Origin: an uncultured delta proteobacterium
Lineage (GTDB): Bacteria; Desulfobacterota; Binatia; Bin18
Length of the DNA: 20,706 bases
NCBI GenBank assembly: GCA_963733195.1
Contig: CAVTCR010000087.1
Location: 1 to 20,706 of the forward strand
Direction of reading: 5' to 3'
A program made the translations under genes and the position numbers. The notes below the pieces were generated by a model, which had not been told where the DNA came from, did not search any database, and was given only the letters and a program-made list of their open reading frames with translations. Positions 3,207-18,063 of this stretch are shown piece by piece; the first letter of the stretch is position 1, and every line of letters begins with the position of its first letter.

Positions 3207-3322
3207 AGACTACTCGATGAAGCGGTTCAAGGACGCCATGGCACCGGTTCAATTTTTCACGTCGTCGGTTCAGATTTCGCATTGCACGTTGACCTCTCGT
3301 TCAAGGGTCAGTAAAGGTTCAA
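3207..3322 (-). promoter_or_regulatory. YTGAACC-box array B with -10, upstream of the fbaA stub
   Basis: GTTCA on + at 3225, 3247, 3268, 3299, 3317 (22/21/31/18). On the minus strand the proximal box is followed by 12 nt and TAGTCT (3212-3207). Confidence 0.78.
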
Positions 3323-4575: not shown

Positions 4576-5340
4576 TCAGTTCTCTCTCCCATTTTCAGTT
4601 TGTTGACGTCCGATCCTCGTGGGCGGCGGCTTGGCCTTCCCTGTATGTAGCCCAAGTGCGGCGATCTGCCTTTGCAACTCTGCGAATATAACATCCGCCG
4701 GCTCGGTTGCGTCCACCCTCACGAACTCGTACTTCAGGGCCAGCTGATCCAAGGTCTGAATCACACGCGCTTGATAGCGCACGAAGCTGTCGTACATGTT
4801 GCCGCCGAACCGCATATCCATGCCACTCTCCCAGTAATCGAAGACGCCTCGCCCACGGATTACACGAGTAACCAAATCTTTCACTTGTGGGCGCAGATAG
4901 TACACCGCATGTGGAATCAAGGCGAAGTCAGTCCCGTGTTCGATCCAAGCAGAATCCTCGCCACGCGCAATCGCCCGTGCAATAATAGAATAAATATAAC
5001 GATCCGTGAGTACGACAAAGCCGGCGCGGAGCGCGGGAATGATTTCATTTTCCAGACGGTCCGCGAAATCGGTGACATAATAGAGCGTCATGGTCACCGG
5101 TCCCAGGGTGTTCCCTTCTTTGGCTTTTTTAATTCCCTTACCGGCCAGAGCCGAACGTGCCATGCCCGTATCGAGGACCGCATGCCCTTCCTGTTCCAGC
5201 CACTGCCGCAGACGCGTCACCTGCGTAGAGCGTCCGACCGCATCTGGCCCCTCGATGACGATCAAAGCACCGTGCAACTCCGCGCAGTCCACACCTGGCA
5301 GAGGAGTGTTATAGAATTGTAAGGGTCCCTTCGCTGCCAT
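4576..5340 (-). CDS. Thymidylate-kinase-like protein, second of a tandem pair (atypical P-loop)
   Basis: LIVIEGPDAVGRST P-loop (R in place of K), VVLTDRYIYS, DFADR. Confidence 0.88.
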   Translation of the reverse strand: MAAKGPLQFYNTPLPGVDCAELHGALIVIEGPDAVGRSTQVTRLRQWLEQEGHAVLDTGMARSALAGKGIKKAKEGNTLGPVTMTLYYVTDFADRLENEIIPALRAGFVVLTDRYIYSIIARAIARGEDSAWIEHGTDFALIPHAVYYLRPQVKDLVTRVIRGRGVFDYWESGMDMRFGGNMYDSFVRYQARVIQTLDQLALKYEFVRVDATEPADVIFAELQRQIAALGLHTGKAKPPPTRIGRQQTENGREN

Positions 5341-6061
5341 TCTTCCCTCGCTCGACGCTGTACAAGGCTCCAGTGTGTAAGCTCCTGCCTAACTTCTTCT
5401 GCACGATGTCTCGCATCTGTTGTTGCTGCTCTTCAATCGACAGCGTGGCGTCAATCACCTGAAAGCCCATCTCCTCCGTCATCGCTTCGTACTCGTCGAG
5501 TATCCGACCCTGGAAAAGACGAAAGCTCTCTTCGACCTCCCGACTGAGCCCGAGATCCATCCCAGCTTCGTAGTATTTGATCGCCTGGCGCCCGCCCAGA
5601 ATGCGGCCCAGCGCCACTTCCAAGGGCGTCTGGAAATAGAAACTCAGGTGCGGTCGCGGCGCAAAGCTGTAGAGCCGGCGGACCCACTGGCGATCGACGC
5701 CGCGCGCCACATCACGGGCAAAGGCCGTGTAGGCATAGCGATCGGCACACACGACCGCTCCAGCCTTCAACAGCGGCAGAATGTAGCGTTCCATCCGGTC
5801 AGCAAAATCCGTGGCGTGCAGTAAACTGAAGGTCGTGGGAGTGAGCATCTTCCTCTTTTTACCCCGTTGCATCGTCTCACGGACCAGGGGAGAGGAGTTC
5901 CATTCACTGAACGCGACCGCGATCGCCTGCGAACGTAGCCATTGGCTCAGGAGAGAGAGTTGAGTAGATTTTCCTGAGCCATCGATTCCTTCGACCACAA
6001 TCAGTTTCCCCTTGAAGCGATTCGGTGCGAACAAGGCGGCTGTCTGTTGATACTCCTGCAT
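5309..6061 (-). CDS. tmk: Thymidylate-kinase (dTMP kinase)-like protein, first of a tandem pair
   Basis: LIVVEGIDGSGKST P-loop, DFADR, VCADRYAYT. Overlaps the partner gene by 32 nt. Confidence 0.9.
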   Translation of the reverse strand: MQEYQQTAALFAPNRFKGKLIVVEGIDGSGKSTQLSLLSQWLRSQAIAVAFSEWNSSPLVRETMQRGKKRKMLTPTTFSLLHATDFADRMERYILPLLKAGAVVCADRYAYTAFARDVARGVDRQWVRRLYSFAPRPHLSFYFQTPLEVALGRILGGRQAIKYYEAGMDLGLSREVEESFRLFQGRILDEYEAMTEEMGFQVIDATLSIEEQQQQMRDIVQKKLGRSLHTGALYSVERGKNGSEGTLTIL

Positions 6062-6148: not shown

Positions 6149-6204
6149 AATCTACATTCAAGCACTGGTTCAACACGAGTGACAAACGGTTCAATTCTTT
6201 TCAG
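6149..6204 (-). promoter_or_regulatory. YTGAACC-box array C with -10, upstream of the tmk-like pair
   Basis: GTTCA on + at 6168 and 6189 (21), degenerate TTTCA at 6199. On the minus strand the proximal box is followed by 13 nt and TAGATT (6154-6149). Confidence 0.62.
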
Positions 6205-7493: not shown

Positions 7494-8312
7494 CTATTCT
7501 TTCATTTTTGCGTCAGGATCCATGCCGGCCACAAACGCGATCCGCACCGCCCCCTCGGCGGGAGTGAACACGAAGAGCGACTCCGGTGTGTCCGGCGTAA
7601 AGTTCCAGTCGTGAAAGTTCGCCCAGAATTGCGGCTCGCCATCCTCCAATTTATAGGTGACCACGAGCCGCTCCGGTACGGGCTTCTCTCCCTTTGCTAT
7701 CCATAGCTGCATATCAACCAGGTCGTTGCGCAACGCGATATGATCGCAGGGCGTTCCATCGATTGTGGCCTCTTCCACCCAATAGGCCGCACTGACCTTG
7801 TCTTTTATGGTCTTGGGCAAATTGTTGGAGAAGAGTTCGGCCATCGGCAAGGGCATCTGCAGGTCGCGGGTAAAGTAAGTAAACGCAGCATCAAGGTCGC
7901 CGGATTTCTGCGCGGTCGCATACACTTTCTCATTCAGACCAAAGAAAGCGAGCTGTTTGCCATCGAACCGAAAACCGCGCTTGGTCCCATCCCGGTCGGT
8001 AATATCGACGGCAATCCGATCCGGGCGCTGCACGGTGATCTTGCGGGTCGCACCAAACTCTAGCTTTTGCCCCCAGACCTGGTCGACATCGTAGCCGATG
8101 TCCGCCGTGACACTATAACGTTGAGCTTTCGCCAGATAATCTGCCATCCGCGTGAGAGGGGCCATCGCTTTTGCGTCGATTGTCGACACGGTGGCCTTAG
8201 TTTCCTGGGCGTGCGCTGGCGTATTGCCCAACACGAGTGCGCACATCAGGGCAGGCACACAGCGCCACGTCACACGGTTCACTCTCCCGCTCCACATAAT
8301 GACTCTATACAT
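7494..8312 (-). CDS. DUF2092 domain-containing periplasmic protein
   Basis: Signal peptide (AHA-Q), GQKLEFG...VQRPDR, CDHIALRNDLVDMQLWI, PQFWANFHDWN. AAGGAG precedes ATG 8312 (alternative start 8339). Confidence 0.88.
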   Translation of the reverse strand: MYRVIMWSGRVNRVTWRCVPALMCALVLGNTPAHAQETKATVSTIDAKAMAPLTRMADYLAKAQRYSVTADIGYDVDQVWGQKLEFGATRKITVQRPDRIAVDITDRDGTKRGFRFDGKQLAFFGLNEKVYATAQKSGDLDAAFTYFTRDLQMPLPMAELFSNNLPKTIKDKVSAAYWVEEATIDGTPCDHIALRNDLVDMQLWIAKGEKPVPERLVVTYKLEDGEPQFWANFHDWNFTPDTPESLFVFTPAEGAVRIAFVAGMDPDAKMKE

Positions 8313-8360
8313 AGCAAATCTCCTTGCTGATCGCACCATCGGTCAATTCCTCACTTGCTC

Positions 8361-8783
8361 TCACTTGACACCGACATCTTTCATCGCAGTCTTGCAGCGC
8401 GTACTTACATCCTTCTCGTTCTTCTTCAGACACGCCGCCAACCGCCCTCCACCCGCTTCCACTGAGGCGCAGTGCTTCTCTAGATCCGCTTCACATTCGC
8501 TGGCAACGTAGGTCAAAGTCGCAATAGCGTGCTCAAGCTGCGCCGAGGCGTCGTACAAAGCATACTCGCACCGGCTCGAAAGCTTATCCTGGTACGCGTA
8601 CAAGCAGGCAAGAACCCTCCCCTCACCCGGAGTGACCTCCTTACAGAACGAGTCGAGTTCCTTCTTACAGCCGTCCTTGACAGACGCGATTAAATCCTGC
8701 TGCGCCCAGGATGTGTTGAATGCACCGGGCAGCATGAAAAGCACCGCTACAGTCAACAGAAACTTTACCACTCGTCTCATCAT
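8361..8783 (-). CDS. Exported cysteine-rich-repeat protein (GLG1/Cys_rich_FGFR-like repeats)
   Basis: Signal peptide (SWA-Q) and two C-x6-C...GxGR..ACL...S.RC repeats. GAGGAGG RBS. Confidence 0.88.
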   Translation of the reverse strand: MMRRVVKFLLTVAVLFMLPGAFNTSWAQQDLIASVKDGCKKELDSFCKEVTPGEGRVLACLYAYQDKLSSRCEYALYDASAQLEHAIATLTYVASECEADLEKHCASVEAGGGRLAACLKKNEKDVSTRCKTAMKDVGVK

Positions 8784-8872: not shown

Positions 8873-8938
8873 ACCATACAAGATGCAGGGGGTCAGGTAC
8901 ATACTGACACGGTTCAAGTTGTGGTTCAGACGGTGCAA
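8873..8938 (-). promoter_or_regulatory. YTGAACC-box array D with -10, upstream of the Cys-rich/DUF2092/Gly-rich genes
   Basis: On +: GGTCA 8891, GTTCA 8912, GTTCA 8924, GTGCA 8933 (21/12/9, the same spacing as array G). On the minus strand the proximal box is followed by 12 nt and TATGGT (8878-8873). Confidence 0.75.
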
Positions 8939-8955
8939 TTTTCTCAATGAACCTT

Positions 8956-9612
8956 TCATTCGTCTGCTTGCTTCGCATACAGACTGACCAACCACGCGAC
9001 AAGAACCGTGAGATACATCTGCCCACCCACCGCTTCGAGGATCGTCAATCCCTGCGCCGAGTCGCTCGCTGGGACGACATCACCGTAGCCGACCGTCGCA
9101 ATCGTCACAAAGCTGAAATAGATGGCGTGCGCCAGAGTCGAGATCGCTTGCCGAGCCACCCCGAACGAGGCGGGCCAAGTCTGGTCGAGCAGCCAGTAGC
9201 AAACGGCGAAAATCAGACCAGCCAGCAGATAGGCATCCAAAGCAGCAAAGATATGCTCGGCGTCCACAATCCGAGCTCGCAGCGCATAGCGCACCGTGGC
9301 CGCCGTCGCCAGAAGGCTCGCCGCCACCCACAGAACCTGGCTTATGGGCAGCAGGGCTTCAACGCCGAGCACGGTCCGGACGCCGCGGGTGACGACGAAC
9401 GCAATACCGAGTAATAGCAGTACCCGAATCCACCGCTCGTGCGCGGCGCTCGCGACCGCGGCCACGAGATTCACGGCCAGCAACAGCTCCAACGGATTGA
9501 AGCTTGATACAAGCGCCTCAAGTGCAGGATGAGCTCCAAGAGTGAGCAGCAGCGAGAAGAACAGCCAAGCGAAACGGTGGCGGCGATAGCTGCTGAGAAC
9601 GGTCGTCAGCAT
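8956..9612 (-). CDS. Potassium channel family protein (Ion_trans_2 pore)
   Basis: YFSFVTIATVGYGD selectivity filter and multiple TM helices. Confidence 0.93.
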   Translation of the reverse strand: MLTTVLSSYRRHRFAWLFFSLLLTLGAHPALEALVSSFNPLELLLAVNLVAAVASAAHERWIRVLLLLGIAFVVTRGVRTVLGVEALLPISQVLWVAASLLATAATVRYALRARIVDAEHIFAALDAYLLAGLIFAVCYWLLDQTWPASFGVARQAISTLAHAIYFSFVTIATVGYGDVVPASDSAQGLTILEAVGGQMYLTVLVAWLVSLYAKQADE

Positions 9613-9634
9613 ACAAATGCCCGTCCCCGGCCAT

Positions 9635-9835
9635 TTACTCTTGCCGGTCGGGCTCGCTCAGCACCTTTACCATGAAAGCCAGTAACTCTTCGAGCGAATG
9701 AAAGCGTGCGGCTTGGTAAGACACCAAATGCTCTACCCGGCCCTGCCACTGTCCCTGTTCGACCTTCGCGTCGGCATGAACCTGCACGACAAACGCACGC
9801 TTGGCTGGGAAAGAGACTCGTTGCTTTGATGACAT
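9635..9835 (-). CDS. Small hypothetical protein (66 aa), divergent from the wHTH-STAND regulator
   Basis: AGGAAAG RBS. Compact beta/alpha sequence AFVVQ...GRVEHLVS...F.SLEELLAFM. First gene behind array E. Confidence 0.8.
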   Translation of the reverse strand: MSSKQRVSFPAKRAFVVQVHADAKVEQGQWQGRVEHLVSYQAARFHSLEELLAFMVKVLSEPDRQE

Positions 9836-9895
9836 CTATACTTTCCTACTTGTTGACGGGAAGTTCCTTACAGGCATTGTCGAGCTTGCCAGAAG

Positions 9896-9983
9896 ACAGT
9901 ACGTTTGTTGCCGGTTCAAATATAGAGGATAAGTTGCGTTTTCGGTTCAATTTCGGTTCAAATTTAAGCCGAAAGTGGTTCAA
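9896..9983 (-). promoter_or_regulatory. YTGAACC-box array E with -10, in the divergent region between the small gene and the regulator
   Basis: GGTTCAA four times (GTTCA at 9914, 9945, 9956, 9978; 31/11/22). On the minus strand the proximal box is followed by 12 nt and TACTGT (9901-9896). The distal box abuts regulator ATG 9984. Confidence 0.8.
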
Positions 9984-12900
9984 ATGACCCAAGAAAACAA
10001 TAGAGGCGCAACACTGTCTGAGTCAGAGTTGCACTTTGGGCCGTTTCGCTTAGAGGCAGCTAAGCAGCTGTGGCGAGAAGACCAGCTCATTAACCTGCGG
10101 CGGCAGTCTCTGGCCATGCTGCGGTATTTAGCCGAGCGACCACACCAACTGGTCACGAAAGAGGAGTTGCTCGAACAGTTATGGCCGGGGATTTATGTGT
10201 CGTCCACTGTGGTCAAGGTGTGCGTGCGAGAAATTCGGCATGCTCTTGGGGATGTGGCCACAAAGCCGCAGTTCGTCGAGACGGTGGGAGTGCAGGGATA
10301 TCGGTTCATCCAAGCAAGCTACCTCCAGTTCTCAGTTCCAGTTGTCAGTTCCGCGTTTAGAGGCAGGAGGCGAGTTCCTCAACTGCAACTGATGAGAACT
10401 GGCAACTGCCAACCGGCTTACAGCCACTGACAACTGACAACCGGCGACTGACAACTCACTTTGTCGGGCGGGAGTACGAGTCGGCGCAGTTGCAGGCGTG
10501 GTACGCGCGCGTGCAGCAAGGCGAGCGACATATCATTTTCGTCTCTGGCGAGGCCGGCATTGGCAAGACAGCGCTGGTGGAGCGCTTTCTTGCGCAAGCG
10601 CAAGCGAGGGGGACCGTACGCATCGGGCGCGGACACTGTATCGAGCAGTATGAACACGGGGAAGCCTACCTGCCTGTGCTGCAAGCGTTGCAGCAGTTGT
10701 GTCGTGCCCCCGACGGCGACCAGGTGGTAGCCATACTACGCCGTTACGCGCCCCTCTGGCTTATCCAGCTCTCGGGGGTGATCGAGGGAGACGAACTGGA
10801 AAAGTTACAACGTCAGGTCCAGGGCAGCAGTCCCCAGCGGATGTTACGTGAATTCGCTGAAGCCATCGAAGTGTTGGCGACTGAGACCCCGGTGATCTTG
10901 TTTCTCGAAGACCTGCAGTGGAGTGATGCCGCGACCCTGGAGTTGCTGGAGTATCTGGCACAGCGCCAGGAGCGCGCCCGGCTGCTGGTGCTCGGCTCCT
11001 ATCGACCAGCGGATACGGTGCTGAGCAGGCATCCCCTGCGTCGAGTGGCGCAGAGGCTGATTGGACGTGGGCAGTGTCAAGAGCTGGCGCTGGAATTGTT
11101 CACCCAAGCGGAAGTTAAAGCCTATCTGACCCAACGACTGGCCGGGAGTCCGGTCGTGGACGTCTTGGGACTGGTGATTCACCGCCGTACGGAGGGGAAT
11201 GCTCTGTTTGTGATGCACTTTGTGGACTATCTGCTCCAGCAGGGCTTGCTGGTGGAGGCAGATGATCGTTGGGAGTTGCGGGTGGAGCCGGCTACGCTCG
11301 AGGATCTCATCCCTGACCACGTGCAGCAACTGATTACCAGACAGATTGAAGGGTTGAGCAGAGAGGTGCAGCAGCTCTTGGAAATGGCCAGTGTGGTGGG
11401 GATGAGCTTTACGGCCAGCGAGGTGGCGGCGGTCATCAATCGCCCGCTGGAAGCAACGGAGGCGGTGTATGATGAGCTGGCTAACCAGGGGCGATTCCTA
11501 GAGGTCCAAGGGCTGGCTGAATGGCCGGATGGGTCCATCACTGTTCGCTATCATTTTCGCCATGCCTTGTGTCAGCACGTGCTGTATCACCGCATCGGAC
11601 TGGCGCAACGGGTGCGCTGGCATCGGCAGCTCGGCGAGCACTTCGCTAAGATGTACGGGGAGCATACGCAAGAGATTGCCGGCGAGTTAGCCTTCCATTT
11701 TGAGCGTGGGCGGGAGTACCGGCGCGCCATCCTCTTCTGGCAGCAGGCAGGGGAGCATGCGCTCCAGCAGAACGCGTACCAGAAAGCGCTTGAGCATGGC
11801 CAGGCTGGGATAACACTCCTCACGCAACTTCCAGCCACAGCGGAACGCGGGCAATTGGAACTCAAGTTACGTCAGATTGTGAGTAGTAGCGCTGGCGGTG
11901 ATCCGGGGGTTCACAGATGACGAACTGGAAGACAACCTCCGCCGCGCCCAGCAGCTCTGTCGAGAGCTGGAGGATGATGCCACGCTTGTGTCAGTGGTAA
12001 TAAGCTTAGCTCGACTGCAATTGTATCGTGCCAATCGCCCAGCAACTGGAAGAGCTGGTACGACAGGAAGAGGATTTGGCCGAGCGCCTCCATGATCCGC
12101 TGCTGCTGGTTCAGCTCCATACACAATTGGTGGCTAGCGAGACATTCCGGGGGCGACATACTCGTGCCGAAGAACATTATCAACAAATCCTTAGGCACTA
12201 TAACCCGCAAGCTCACCGGTCTTCTCCTGCTTTCTTGGGTCAAGACCCATTCGTAGGAGCTCTCGGCGCCTCCGGTCTGAACCTCAGCCTATCGGGGTGG
12301 CTCGATCAGGGCTGGAGCCGTCTCGCGCAGGGACTCGCACTTGCGGAAGAGTATGCGCAGTATGTACTTTTGGCCAACGGGCTGTTGCTCGCCGTGCCGG
12401 TGAAGTCCCTTCGCGGCGAATATGAAGAGGCATGGCAGCTCGCCAAAAAAATGGACGCGCTCTCACGTGAGCATGATTTTTCACTGTATGTGCACCTTGG
12501 AGTCCTGCTCCAAGGCGGTATGGCAGTGCAATGTGGCGCGCTAGAGGAAGGGATTGCGGCAATTACCGGTGGGCTCTCACAGTATCGCGCCACAGGAGCC
12601 CAACTCTTCATACCCTATTTTTTGTCGTTACTCGCGGATGGCTATCGGCAACAGGGGAAGGTCGCAGAGGCACTGCAGGTGGTGAGTGAAGCCCTTAGCT
12701 TGACGACAACGAATTTCGACGTCTTCTGGGAGGCGGAGCTGTATCGGCAAAAAGGCGAGCTGACGCTCGCCCAGTCTAGTGTTCAGCGTTTAGAGTCGGG
12801 AAAGAAAATCAAAAATCAAAAGTCAAAAGTCAAAAGTCAAAAATTTCTGACCCCCAATCCCCGACCCCTAACCCCCAAGGAGAAGCGGAGGCGTGTTTTC

Positions 12901-13102
12901 TGCAAGCCATCGAGATCGCCCGCCGGCAGGAGGCGAAGCTGTTGGAGCTGCGGGCGGTAATGAGCTTGGCGCGGCTGTGGCACCAGCAGGGAAAGAAGAA
13001 GAGGCTCGACAGAGGCTGGCCGAGATCTACAACTGGTTCACTGAAGGGTTGGAGACGAAAGACTTACAAGAGGCCAAAGCGTTGCTGGCGGAGTTGGCAT
13101 AA
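9984..13102 (+). CDS. Transcriptional regulator: OmpR/CadC-type winged-helix DBD + STAND (AAA_16-like) ATPase + TPR-like sensor; at least 5 frameshifts (pseudogene or sequencing errors)
   Basis: FGPFRL...LVTKEELLEQLWP...IRHALGD...VETVGVQGYRFI (Trans_reg_C); FVGRE, Walker A GEAGIGKT, Walker B LFLEDLQWSD, RTEGNALF; C-terminal ELRAVMSLARLW...YNWFTEG...DLQEAKALL. Frame changes near 10310-10430, 11888, 12040, 12800-12876 and 12995. Confidence 0.9.
10325..10455. repeat. Inverted heptamer tandem arrays in the DBD-ATPase linker
   Basis: About 4 YCAGTTS units at 10325-10351 face about 9 degenerate RCAACTG units at 10380-10455. Confidence 0.8.
12804..12877. repeat. Heptamer tandem arrays inserted in the regulator's C-terminal region
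   Basis: About 5 AAAARTC units at 12804-12843, then GACCCCC AATCCCC GACCCCT AACCCCC at 12849-12876. Encodes KIKNQKSKVKSQK...TPNPRPLTP. Confidence 0.85.
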
Positions 13103-15979: not shown

Positions 15980-16055
15980 AAACTACTCGATCACAAGGTT
16001 CAGATACATCGTAACCTCGGTTCAATTATGGTTCAAAGCGGTTCAAATTGATTCA
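15980..16055 (-). promoter_or_regulatory. YTGAACC-box array F with -10, upstream of the YSC84 and TPR genes
   Basis: GTTCA on + at 15998, 16020, 16031, 16041 and ATTCA at 16051 (22/11/10/10). On the minus strand the proximal box is followed by 12 nt and TAGTTT (15985-15980). Confidence 0.8.
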
Positions 16056-17997: not shown

Positions 17998-18063
17998 CTG
18001 AACCATCTGAACCGTAATTTGAACCATGTCAGCGTGTATTTGAACCCCGACGTAATGTATACC
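17998..18063 (+). promoter_or_regulatory. YTGAACC-box array G with -10-like hexamer, upstream of the 18282 gene
   Basis: TGAACC at 17999, 18008, 18020, 18041 (9/12/21), then 12 nt after TGAAC, then TATACC (18058-18063). Confidence 0.78.

Follow-up and report, generated by a model that had tools for sequence, protein, structure and literature searches.

A 66-codon open reading frame (ORF) lies between the gene for a STAND regulator and a K+ channel gene, and its position raises the question of what such a small product does: whether it is a dedicated partner of the regulator, serves another target, assists the genes that follow it, or is not a protein at all. The DNA analyzed here, referred to as the window, is a stretch of 20,706 nucleotides and constitutes one whole contig (C87) of an assembly that totals 6.9 Mb in 87 contigs. 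The ORF (9635..9835, minus strand) begins with ATG and encodes a 66-aa product, P0001, with the motif AFVVQ...GRVEHxVS...F.SLEELLAF. A Shine-Dalgarno-like AGGAAAG (9841..9847, minus strand), read from the sequence, ends 5 nt upstream of the start codon, and 22 nt (9613–9634) separate the stop codon from the ATG of the channel gene. Upstream of the small gene, array E places four TTGAACC boxes on the minus strand between 9913 and 9983. The first-pass annotation had described the ORF, its ribosome binding site, and the 22-nt gap in these terms, and the sequence agrees with it on each.

A bare ORF of this size carries little weight, because the window contains 151 ORFs of at least 50 aa. The frame is short, and it might have been a leader or a chance ORF 5' of the channel operon from which no functional protein is made. 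Conservation refutes this. A word-indexed search with P0001 returned 161 scored candidates, all 161 at E ≤ 0.01, and among the 120 matches listed, identity to P0001 was 70%–86% and length was mostly exactly 66 aa. HMMER, run exhaustively against 1.84 billion representatives, identified 827 at E ≤ 1e-3, of which 37 reached E ≤ 1e-10; the 827 family representatives are clusters at 50% identity, and both length and sequence are kept across hundreds of them. The dN/dS of the small gene was 0.17–0.18 against two orthologous loci and 0.24 between those two loci, and its AlphaFold2 (AF2) fold prediction is confident. Given the homologs, the 827 representatives, the low dN/dS (~0.2), and the AF2 model, 9635..9835 is a real protein gene under purifying selection, and the likelihood of a leader or chance ORF is practically nil. 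A weak hint of expression comes from RNA-library contigs from two libraries of different studies, which cover the small gene at 96%–98% identity. One of them (X2) spans 9582–9861 and extends 31 nt into the channel gene, the other (X6) spans 9720–9861, and each has a loose end of 9–15 nt at 9861. As contigs, they reveal neither the strand nor the point where transcription begins, and they could stem from carried-over DNA. At most 0.19 of the window's words were present in any one sequencing run, and the uncovered parts are uninformative.

The small protein is, as modeled, a soluble and folded three-strand-plus-helix protein of an undescribed family. The AF2 model of P0001, built from a 79-sequence alignment (pLDDT 87, pTM 0.70), places strands at residues 15–19, 32–36, and 42–45 and a C-terminal helix at 48–60. 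Two residues, G32 and E35, are invariant in the family, and A14, F15, V16, Q18, R33, H36, S39, F45, L51, and F54 are conserved in at least 90% of members; the hairpin at 19–31 and both tails are variable. The family is mildly acidic (median pI 5.9, median core net charge −2), has only one conserved basic residue, and carries no hydrophobic segment (median length of the longest hydrophobic run, 5 residues). These properties are more in keeping with a protein that binds other proteins in the cytoplasm than with one that binds DNA or is secreted. P0001 matched no family in Pfam or NCBIfam at E ≤ 0.01, and the 79 members searched against Pfam at E ≤ 1 gave scattered matches, none common to more than two members. 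A PDB profile search with the family found nothing at E ≤ 10, and ESM Atlas matches were limited to small hypothetical clusters without names. A defense-system reading was rejected on 0 PADLOC matches for the small protein. No fused or longer forms were found, and the 150 representatives listed were at most 166 aa long, apart from one 1353-aa protein (P0212); this is a repetitive coiled-coil protein, looks spurious, and was rejected as a long family member. A full-text literature search turned up no description of the family, which is not proof that it is unpublished.

Structure comparison brought up one further reading, in which the small protein is a minimal DNA- or RNA-binding domain and acts as a second-tier regulator below the STAND protein. 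In a VIA-align search, the best Z was 4.2 and none was ≥5; rows for HicB-N, dsRBD, AP2, and MmoD were tied at Z 3–4. The weak top rows include dsRBDs, HicB N-domains, and AP2 (Z 3.2–4.0), all of them three-strand-plus-helix folds, which is what this reading has in its favor. We nonetheless consider it unlikely. No match reached a Z of 5, and a best Z below 8 may reflect merely a common arrangement; a Foldseek search of the PDB with the AF2 model found nothing at E ≤ 1e-3; AP2, dsrm, and HicB were absent from the Pfam matches of the 79 members even at E ≤ 1; and the acidity of the family, with its single conserved basic residue, speaks against nucleic acid as a target.

The divergent neighbor (9984..13102, plus strand) encodes the STAND regulator, with the architecture wHTH (Trans_reg_C), AAA_16 NOD, and TPR, and lies in at least four frames in this assembly. 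An OmpR-type wHTH fragment (9975–10430; Trans_reg_C, 8.9e-17) is followed, in frames other than that of the wHTH, by an AAA_16 fragment (10490–11920; 1.5e-24) and a TPR fragment (12028–12960; TPR_2 / TPR_MalT), all on the plus strand, with AAA_16 beginning ~55 residues past the wHTH. The elements that define a STAND protein, a P-loop NOD and then a TPR sensor, plus an effector domain, are found in the window fragments and in the intact paralog P0271 (Trans_reg_C 26–100, AAA_16 156–332, then TPR_12 / TPR_4). The BTAD part of SARP regulators was absent from the fragments and from P0271 at E ≤ 1e-3. A search for regulator relatives gave 5955 at E ≤ 1e-20 among 8000 candidates scored, and their source names include Candidatus Binatia, Deltaproteobacteria, and Blastocatellia.

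The first-pass annotation took the regulator to be in need of repair, and this premise did not hold up. In the same assembly, rpoB is in 3 frame pieces and rpoC in at least 3 (C71:133111-141235; L132–L138), which shows a general frameshift error rate of ~0.5–0.7 per kb in long genes. Because these essential genes are also split and cannot be pseudogenes, the frame breaks in the regulator are probably consensus or assembly errors; the gene itself is probably intact, and repairing it may be unnecessary. Three 7-nt tandem repeats, CAGTTCT, ACTGACA, and AAAATCA, occur within the regulator frame (10324–10352, 10426–10456, and 12805–12844), and the wHTH-to-NOD frame change sits in the one at 10426–10456. 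A change in repeat number at these sites would shift the frame. A 32-nt RNA-library contig with a depth of 310 matches the 10426–10456 repeat.

The pairing of small gene and regulator recurs throughout this genome. A profile search identified 18 copies of the small-protein family, 14 of them in one frame and four split across frames (C8:78.4k, C71, C74, and C1:21.6k); the copies are diverged (45%–63% identity). Fifteen of the 18 are head-to-head with a wHTH gene (tblastn starts 140–410 nt apart), and 14 of these wHTH genes run on into AAA_16; the remaining one, on C57, has a wHTH match only. The C62 copy lies ~800 nt past the 3' end of a regulator and has CTGAAC boxes of its own, followed by TACTGT, while the copies at C70:8754 and C8:88435 have no boxes and are embedded in other gene strings. 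Counted from the regulator side, the genome has 34 wHTH+AAA loci, 14 with a small neighbor and 20 without, so the regulator family can work without the small gene. Partnered regulators are scattered over a tree of the NOD region (33 rows, one dropped as having <250 residues), with 6 changes versus a shuffled mean of 10.6; 2 of 500 shuffles were as low. This scatter argues that the pairing is old and was several times lost or moved. One locus (C48:26990-33793, L025) has two regulator/small-gene modules arranged tail-to-tail with ~220 nt between the small genes. The two modules are near-identical inverted copies, which could reflect a palindromic duplication or an assembly fold-back. Because the inverted halves are near-identical (tree branch lengths of 0.013 and 0.015), this locus was not relied on, and it was dropped as proof of a cargo-free unit.

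The same linkage was found in other genomes and metagenomes. External loci were picked by small-protein similarity alone (92 loci, 93 copies) and comprised nine loci from species-representative genomes, three from 200 other genomes of the phylum, and 80 soil-metagenome contigs, the best of 449 relatives that were confirmed out of 600 pattern matches. Upstream sequence of at least 500 nt was available for 59 copies, and 49 of these face a divergent wHTH gene, a median of 170 nt away. Of the 34 copies with <500 nt upstream, 8 also have one. Ten of the 59 assessable copies have no head-to-head regulator. These exceptions include a second copy located downstream of a regulator (L077), and the neighbors of others are unrelated (transposase, XisH, amine oxidase, and methyltransferase). 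At another of the ten, L012:4850-5896, the divergent neighbor is a 348-aa protein made up of just the TPR region found at the C terminus of these regulators. Within the same class, the family occurs in 50 of 150 other genomes sampled, with 1–9 matches each, compared to 17 for this genome in the same search. The first-pass annotation had suggested that similar small proteins lie head-to-head with wHTH-AAA regulators. Homology searches and gene-neighborhood statistics recovered this arrangement both in this genome and among the assessable external copies.

The region between the two genes has features that fit an activator-dependent promoter. The four boxes of array E (minus strand) are at 9913–9919, 9944–9950, 9955–9961, and 9977–9983, with spacings of 31, 11, and 22 bp, and are presumed to be sites for the wHTH. 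TACTGT (9896–9901, minus strand), a candidate −10 hexamer of the form TAnnnT, lies 7 bp beyond the proximal 11-bp unit, TTGAACCGGCA, and transcription is predicted to start near 9888. In the ortholog L010, the boxes are kept and TAAGGT stands at the aligned place of the hexamer, with the remaining spacer diverged. Each pair in this genome has a short direct repeat of its own between the genes, with ~11-bp phasing: TTGAACC in the window (C87; spacings 22, 11, 31), TTTCGAGAAAT on C42, AACGCAAAC on C76, TCAACG on C74, ACCGAAAT on C57, AACCAAA on C8, ATCTGAA on C70, and AATCCCA on C1, C83, C25, C41, C71, and in both C48 copies. An alignment of seven AATCCCA-group regions showed that the repeat units are conserved and that a hexamer with an invariant T, A, and final T lies 7–8 bp past the fourth 11-bp unit in all seven. 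The small genes of this AATCCCA-box subgroup also share a conserved element, GATTGCAAGCGA, in the presumed 5' untranslated region (L025, L026, L027, L028, L029, and L030; alignment columns about 170–185).

SARP promoters are described as carrying repeats spaced by 11 or 22 bp, the 3' one of which lies 8 bp from the −10 element (PMC10936776). The last repeat here lies 7–8 bp from the candidate −10, close to the distance in an AfsS-like promoter, a likeness of sequence geometry only. By this geometry, boxes and hexamer are arranged as described for promoters that SARP/AfsR proteins activate. A scan of 8900–10100 for consensus sigma-70 promoters and terminators found nothing, which is unsurprising for an activator-dependent promoter that has no −35 element but lends the promoter no support. 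The distal box (9977–9983) abuts the regulator ATG at 9984, so the same sites probably affect expression of the regulator too.

Boxes of this type extend well beyond the small gene. TTGAACC occurs 16 times in the window versus 2.45 expected, and 16 was reached by no shuffle. Arrays of (T/C)TGAACC with 10-, 11-, 21-, and 22-bp spacings were identified at 3224–3322, 6167–6194, 8911–8929, 16019–16046, and 18019–18046. They precede an aldolase-like start at ~3140 (minus strand), thymidylate-kinase-like genes, a Cys-rich gene, and starts at ~15900 (minus strand) and ~18282 (plus strand). The array at 8911..8929 (minus strand) consists of CTGAACC and TTGAACC boxes 12 bp apart and falls in the gap that separates the channel and Cys-rich genes. 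A TAnnnT hexamer is present 7–8 bp past the last 11-bp unit of the 3.2-, 6.2-, and 16.0-kb arrays, as in array E. Clusters of at least three boxes number 10 genome-wide, and four are on this 20.7-kb contig. From the distribution of boxes, the window appears to hold a local regulon controlled by the STAND regulator. These further arrays mean that the regulator has several targets and that the operon of the small gene is not the sole one. The small gene could be merely one regulon member; it is the one regulator target that recurs across the family. The thymidylate-kinase-like genes are two in tandem (4576–6061, minus strand), with two TTGAACC boxes upstream.

The genes that follow the small gene, referred to here as cargo, vary between loci. 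In the window, they encode the K+ channel (Ion_trans_2, 218 aa; 8956..9612), a Cys-rich repeat protein (8361..8783), and a DUF2092 periplasmic protein (7494..8339), all on the minus strand. Two close orthologous loci, L009 and L010, have no K+ channel gene, and a gene similar to that for the Cys-rich protein follows in L009. Other cargo in this genome encodes an EF-hand protein, a sulfatase, NHL/Calx-beta proteins, a beta-propeller with cytochrome c, ExbBD, and uncharacterized proteins. Cargo elsewhere includes Lcl_C, sulfatase, PAP2/VCPO, a histidine kinase with a LuxR-type response regulator, cyclase-AAA_16 proteins, a molybdopterin oxidoreductase with cytochrome c, an aminotransferase, a cupin, a phosphoesterase, and glycine-zipper proteins. 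Among the copies with at least 700 nt downstream, a crude ORF call placed the next ORF on the same strand in ~38 of 54 and on the opposite strand in ~11 of 54. The small protein might serve this cargo, for example by joining the K+ channel as a cytoplasmic subunit or by chaperoning the exported proteins. Its gene is only 22 nt ahead of the channel gene, and many of the cargo products seem to be extracytoplasmic (DUF2092, Cys-rich, Lcl_C, sulfatase, PAP2/VCPO, and Calx-beta). Such a role is very improbable, since the channel is absent from L009 and L010, the cargo changes from locus to locus and includes kinases, cyclases, and cytoplasmic enzymes, and some copies have no co-directional neighbor. 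A channel subunit in particular was rejected, given the absence of the channel from the orthologous loci and the variable cargo.

These observations can be combined into a mechanism of three steps. The STAND regulator would bind the phased TTGAACC boxes via its OmpR-type wHTH, and would then activate the facing promoter, giving the small protein as the first product followed by the cargo (here the channel, Cys-rich, and DUF2092 proteins). We infer this activation of the small gene from promoter geometry and the SARP precedent; the first two steps together rest on geometry, conservation, and that precedent. In the third step, the small protein would in turn bind the cognate regulator and adjust its activity, as AfsS does with AfsR, so that regulator and small protein would make up a single self-contained signaling unit. 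Feedback on the regulator is probable by analogy, on three indirect arguments: diverged copies are paired one-to-one, the protein is acidic and appears not to be secreted, and AfsR-AfsS provides a precedent. The search for fused forms gave no Rosetta-stone support for a link between small protein and regulator. Taken as a whole, a regulator that activates the small gene and its cargo, with a small protein that most likely binds back and tunes the regulator, is our leading reading, held with belief and doubt in roughly equal measure. The two-gene module proposed in the first-pass annotation fares well on the variable cargo, the pair-specific boxes, and the AfsR-AfsS analog; the regulator also has further box arrays in the window.

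The main competitor is a small protein that is a conserved output of the regulator but has a different cellular target; RNA polymerase, proteases, and metabolic enzymes are examples. In that case, STAND sensors of many different tunings would all induce one generic effector, each from a copy of its own. Near-invariance of the core (G32, R33, E35, H36, S39, F45, L51, and F54) despite differing regulators and boxes suits a common target, and the copies without a regulator and the other targets of the regulator fit as well. In contrast, 18 diverged copies of one effector (45%–63% identity) would amount to redundancy within a single genome, cognate partners are the more typical case of tight one-to-one pairing accompanied by divergence, and a recurring candidate target is absent from the neighborhoods. 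We regard this alternative as possible and on the doubtful side. Feedback on the regulator, the preferred reading, also allows a stronger version that we put forward only tentatively. The small protein would be the obligate second subunit of a large and little-studied class of STAND transcription switches in soil bacteria, in which each regulator makes its own cognate ligand, docking would occur via the face formed by Q18, R33, E35, and H36, and paralogs would be discriminated by the variable 19–31 hairpin. If true, a genome could hold up to 18 such switches, each insulated from the others and either self-reinforcing or self-limiting. They would be a protein-based equivalent of two-component systems and would parallel, in bacteria, the activation of NLRs by protein ligands.

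The pair is best read as a non-homologous analog of AfsR-AfsS of Streptomyces. Both combine a regulator of OmpR-type wHTH, NOD ATPase, and TPR with an adjacent gene for a protein of ~65 aa. The afsS gene adjoins afsR and is not head-to-head with it, whereas the present pair is head-to-head, has a regulator without BTAD, reaches 18 pairs per genome, and occurs in Binatia and other soil lineages rather than actinomycetes. AfsR is reported to activate afsS, AfsS binds AfsR with a Kd of 4.7 µM (pull-down, MST, and co-IP), AfsS raises the DNA binding and promoter occupancy of AfsR, and AfsS function depends on 3–4 internal repeated sequences (PMC10832544). The promoter features described resemble those here, with repeats 11/22 bp apart and a weak −10, CACTGT in afsS versus TACTGT here (PMC10936776, PMC10832544). 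AfsS is described as having 3–4 short repeats, whereas the small protein appears from AF2 and its sequence to be one folded domain with no internal repeat. Since AfsS is unrelated in sequence and architecture, the analogy carries no weight of homology.

Two other systems show partial likeness. The DNA-binding domain of MalT, a comparison raised in the first-pass annotation, is C-terminal and LuxR-type, not an N-terminal wHTH. Like the present regulator as proposed, MalT is a STAND activator set by the binding of proteins, namely MalY, MalK, and Aes of E. coli (PMC10427625). Its inhibitors are, however, enzymes or transporter subunits encoded elsewhere, and it has no dedicated small neighbor. 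RRNPP and Rgg-SHP systems share a TPR transcription factor, an adjacent and often divergent small gene, and an autoregulatory loop (PMC10075063, PMC13361665). They differ in that their small genes give rise to propeptides that are secreted, and in that an NTPase is missing from the receptors. The small protein here has no hydrophobic leader and is folded in the AF2 model, and the regulator has an AAA_16 NOD.

Regulators of the wHTH-NOD-TPR type are very numerous in soil bacteria, as the 34 loci in this one genome illustrate. To our knowledge, AfsR is the only member that has been studied, and a literature search turned up no description of the type outside Streptomyces. A small neighbor with a confidently predicted fold and an invariant surface motif offers a handle on how STAND switches are controlled. 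The comparison suggests more than one origin for the AfsR-AfsS logic, in which the small protein is induced by the regulator and then joins it. The results as a whole point to a two-gene signaling unit that recurs among soil bacteria and whose small component is not known to have been studied. The pair-specific 7-bp boxes provide a map from regulator to promoters, which could make regulons of uncultured Binatia readable from sequence.

Two arrangements of the cargo and of the regulator domains were also observed. At C1:20443-22216, a frameshifted small gene is followed by a co-directional wHTH-STAND regulator, the closest paralog of the regulator in the window, which means that a second regulator can be the cargo of a module. 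Among the regulator relatives, P0309, P0319, and P0331 have a class III cyclase domain in addition to Trans_reg_C and AAA_16, and cyclase-AAA_16 proteins are also found among the cargo of small genes (loci L096 and L116).
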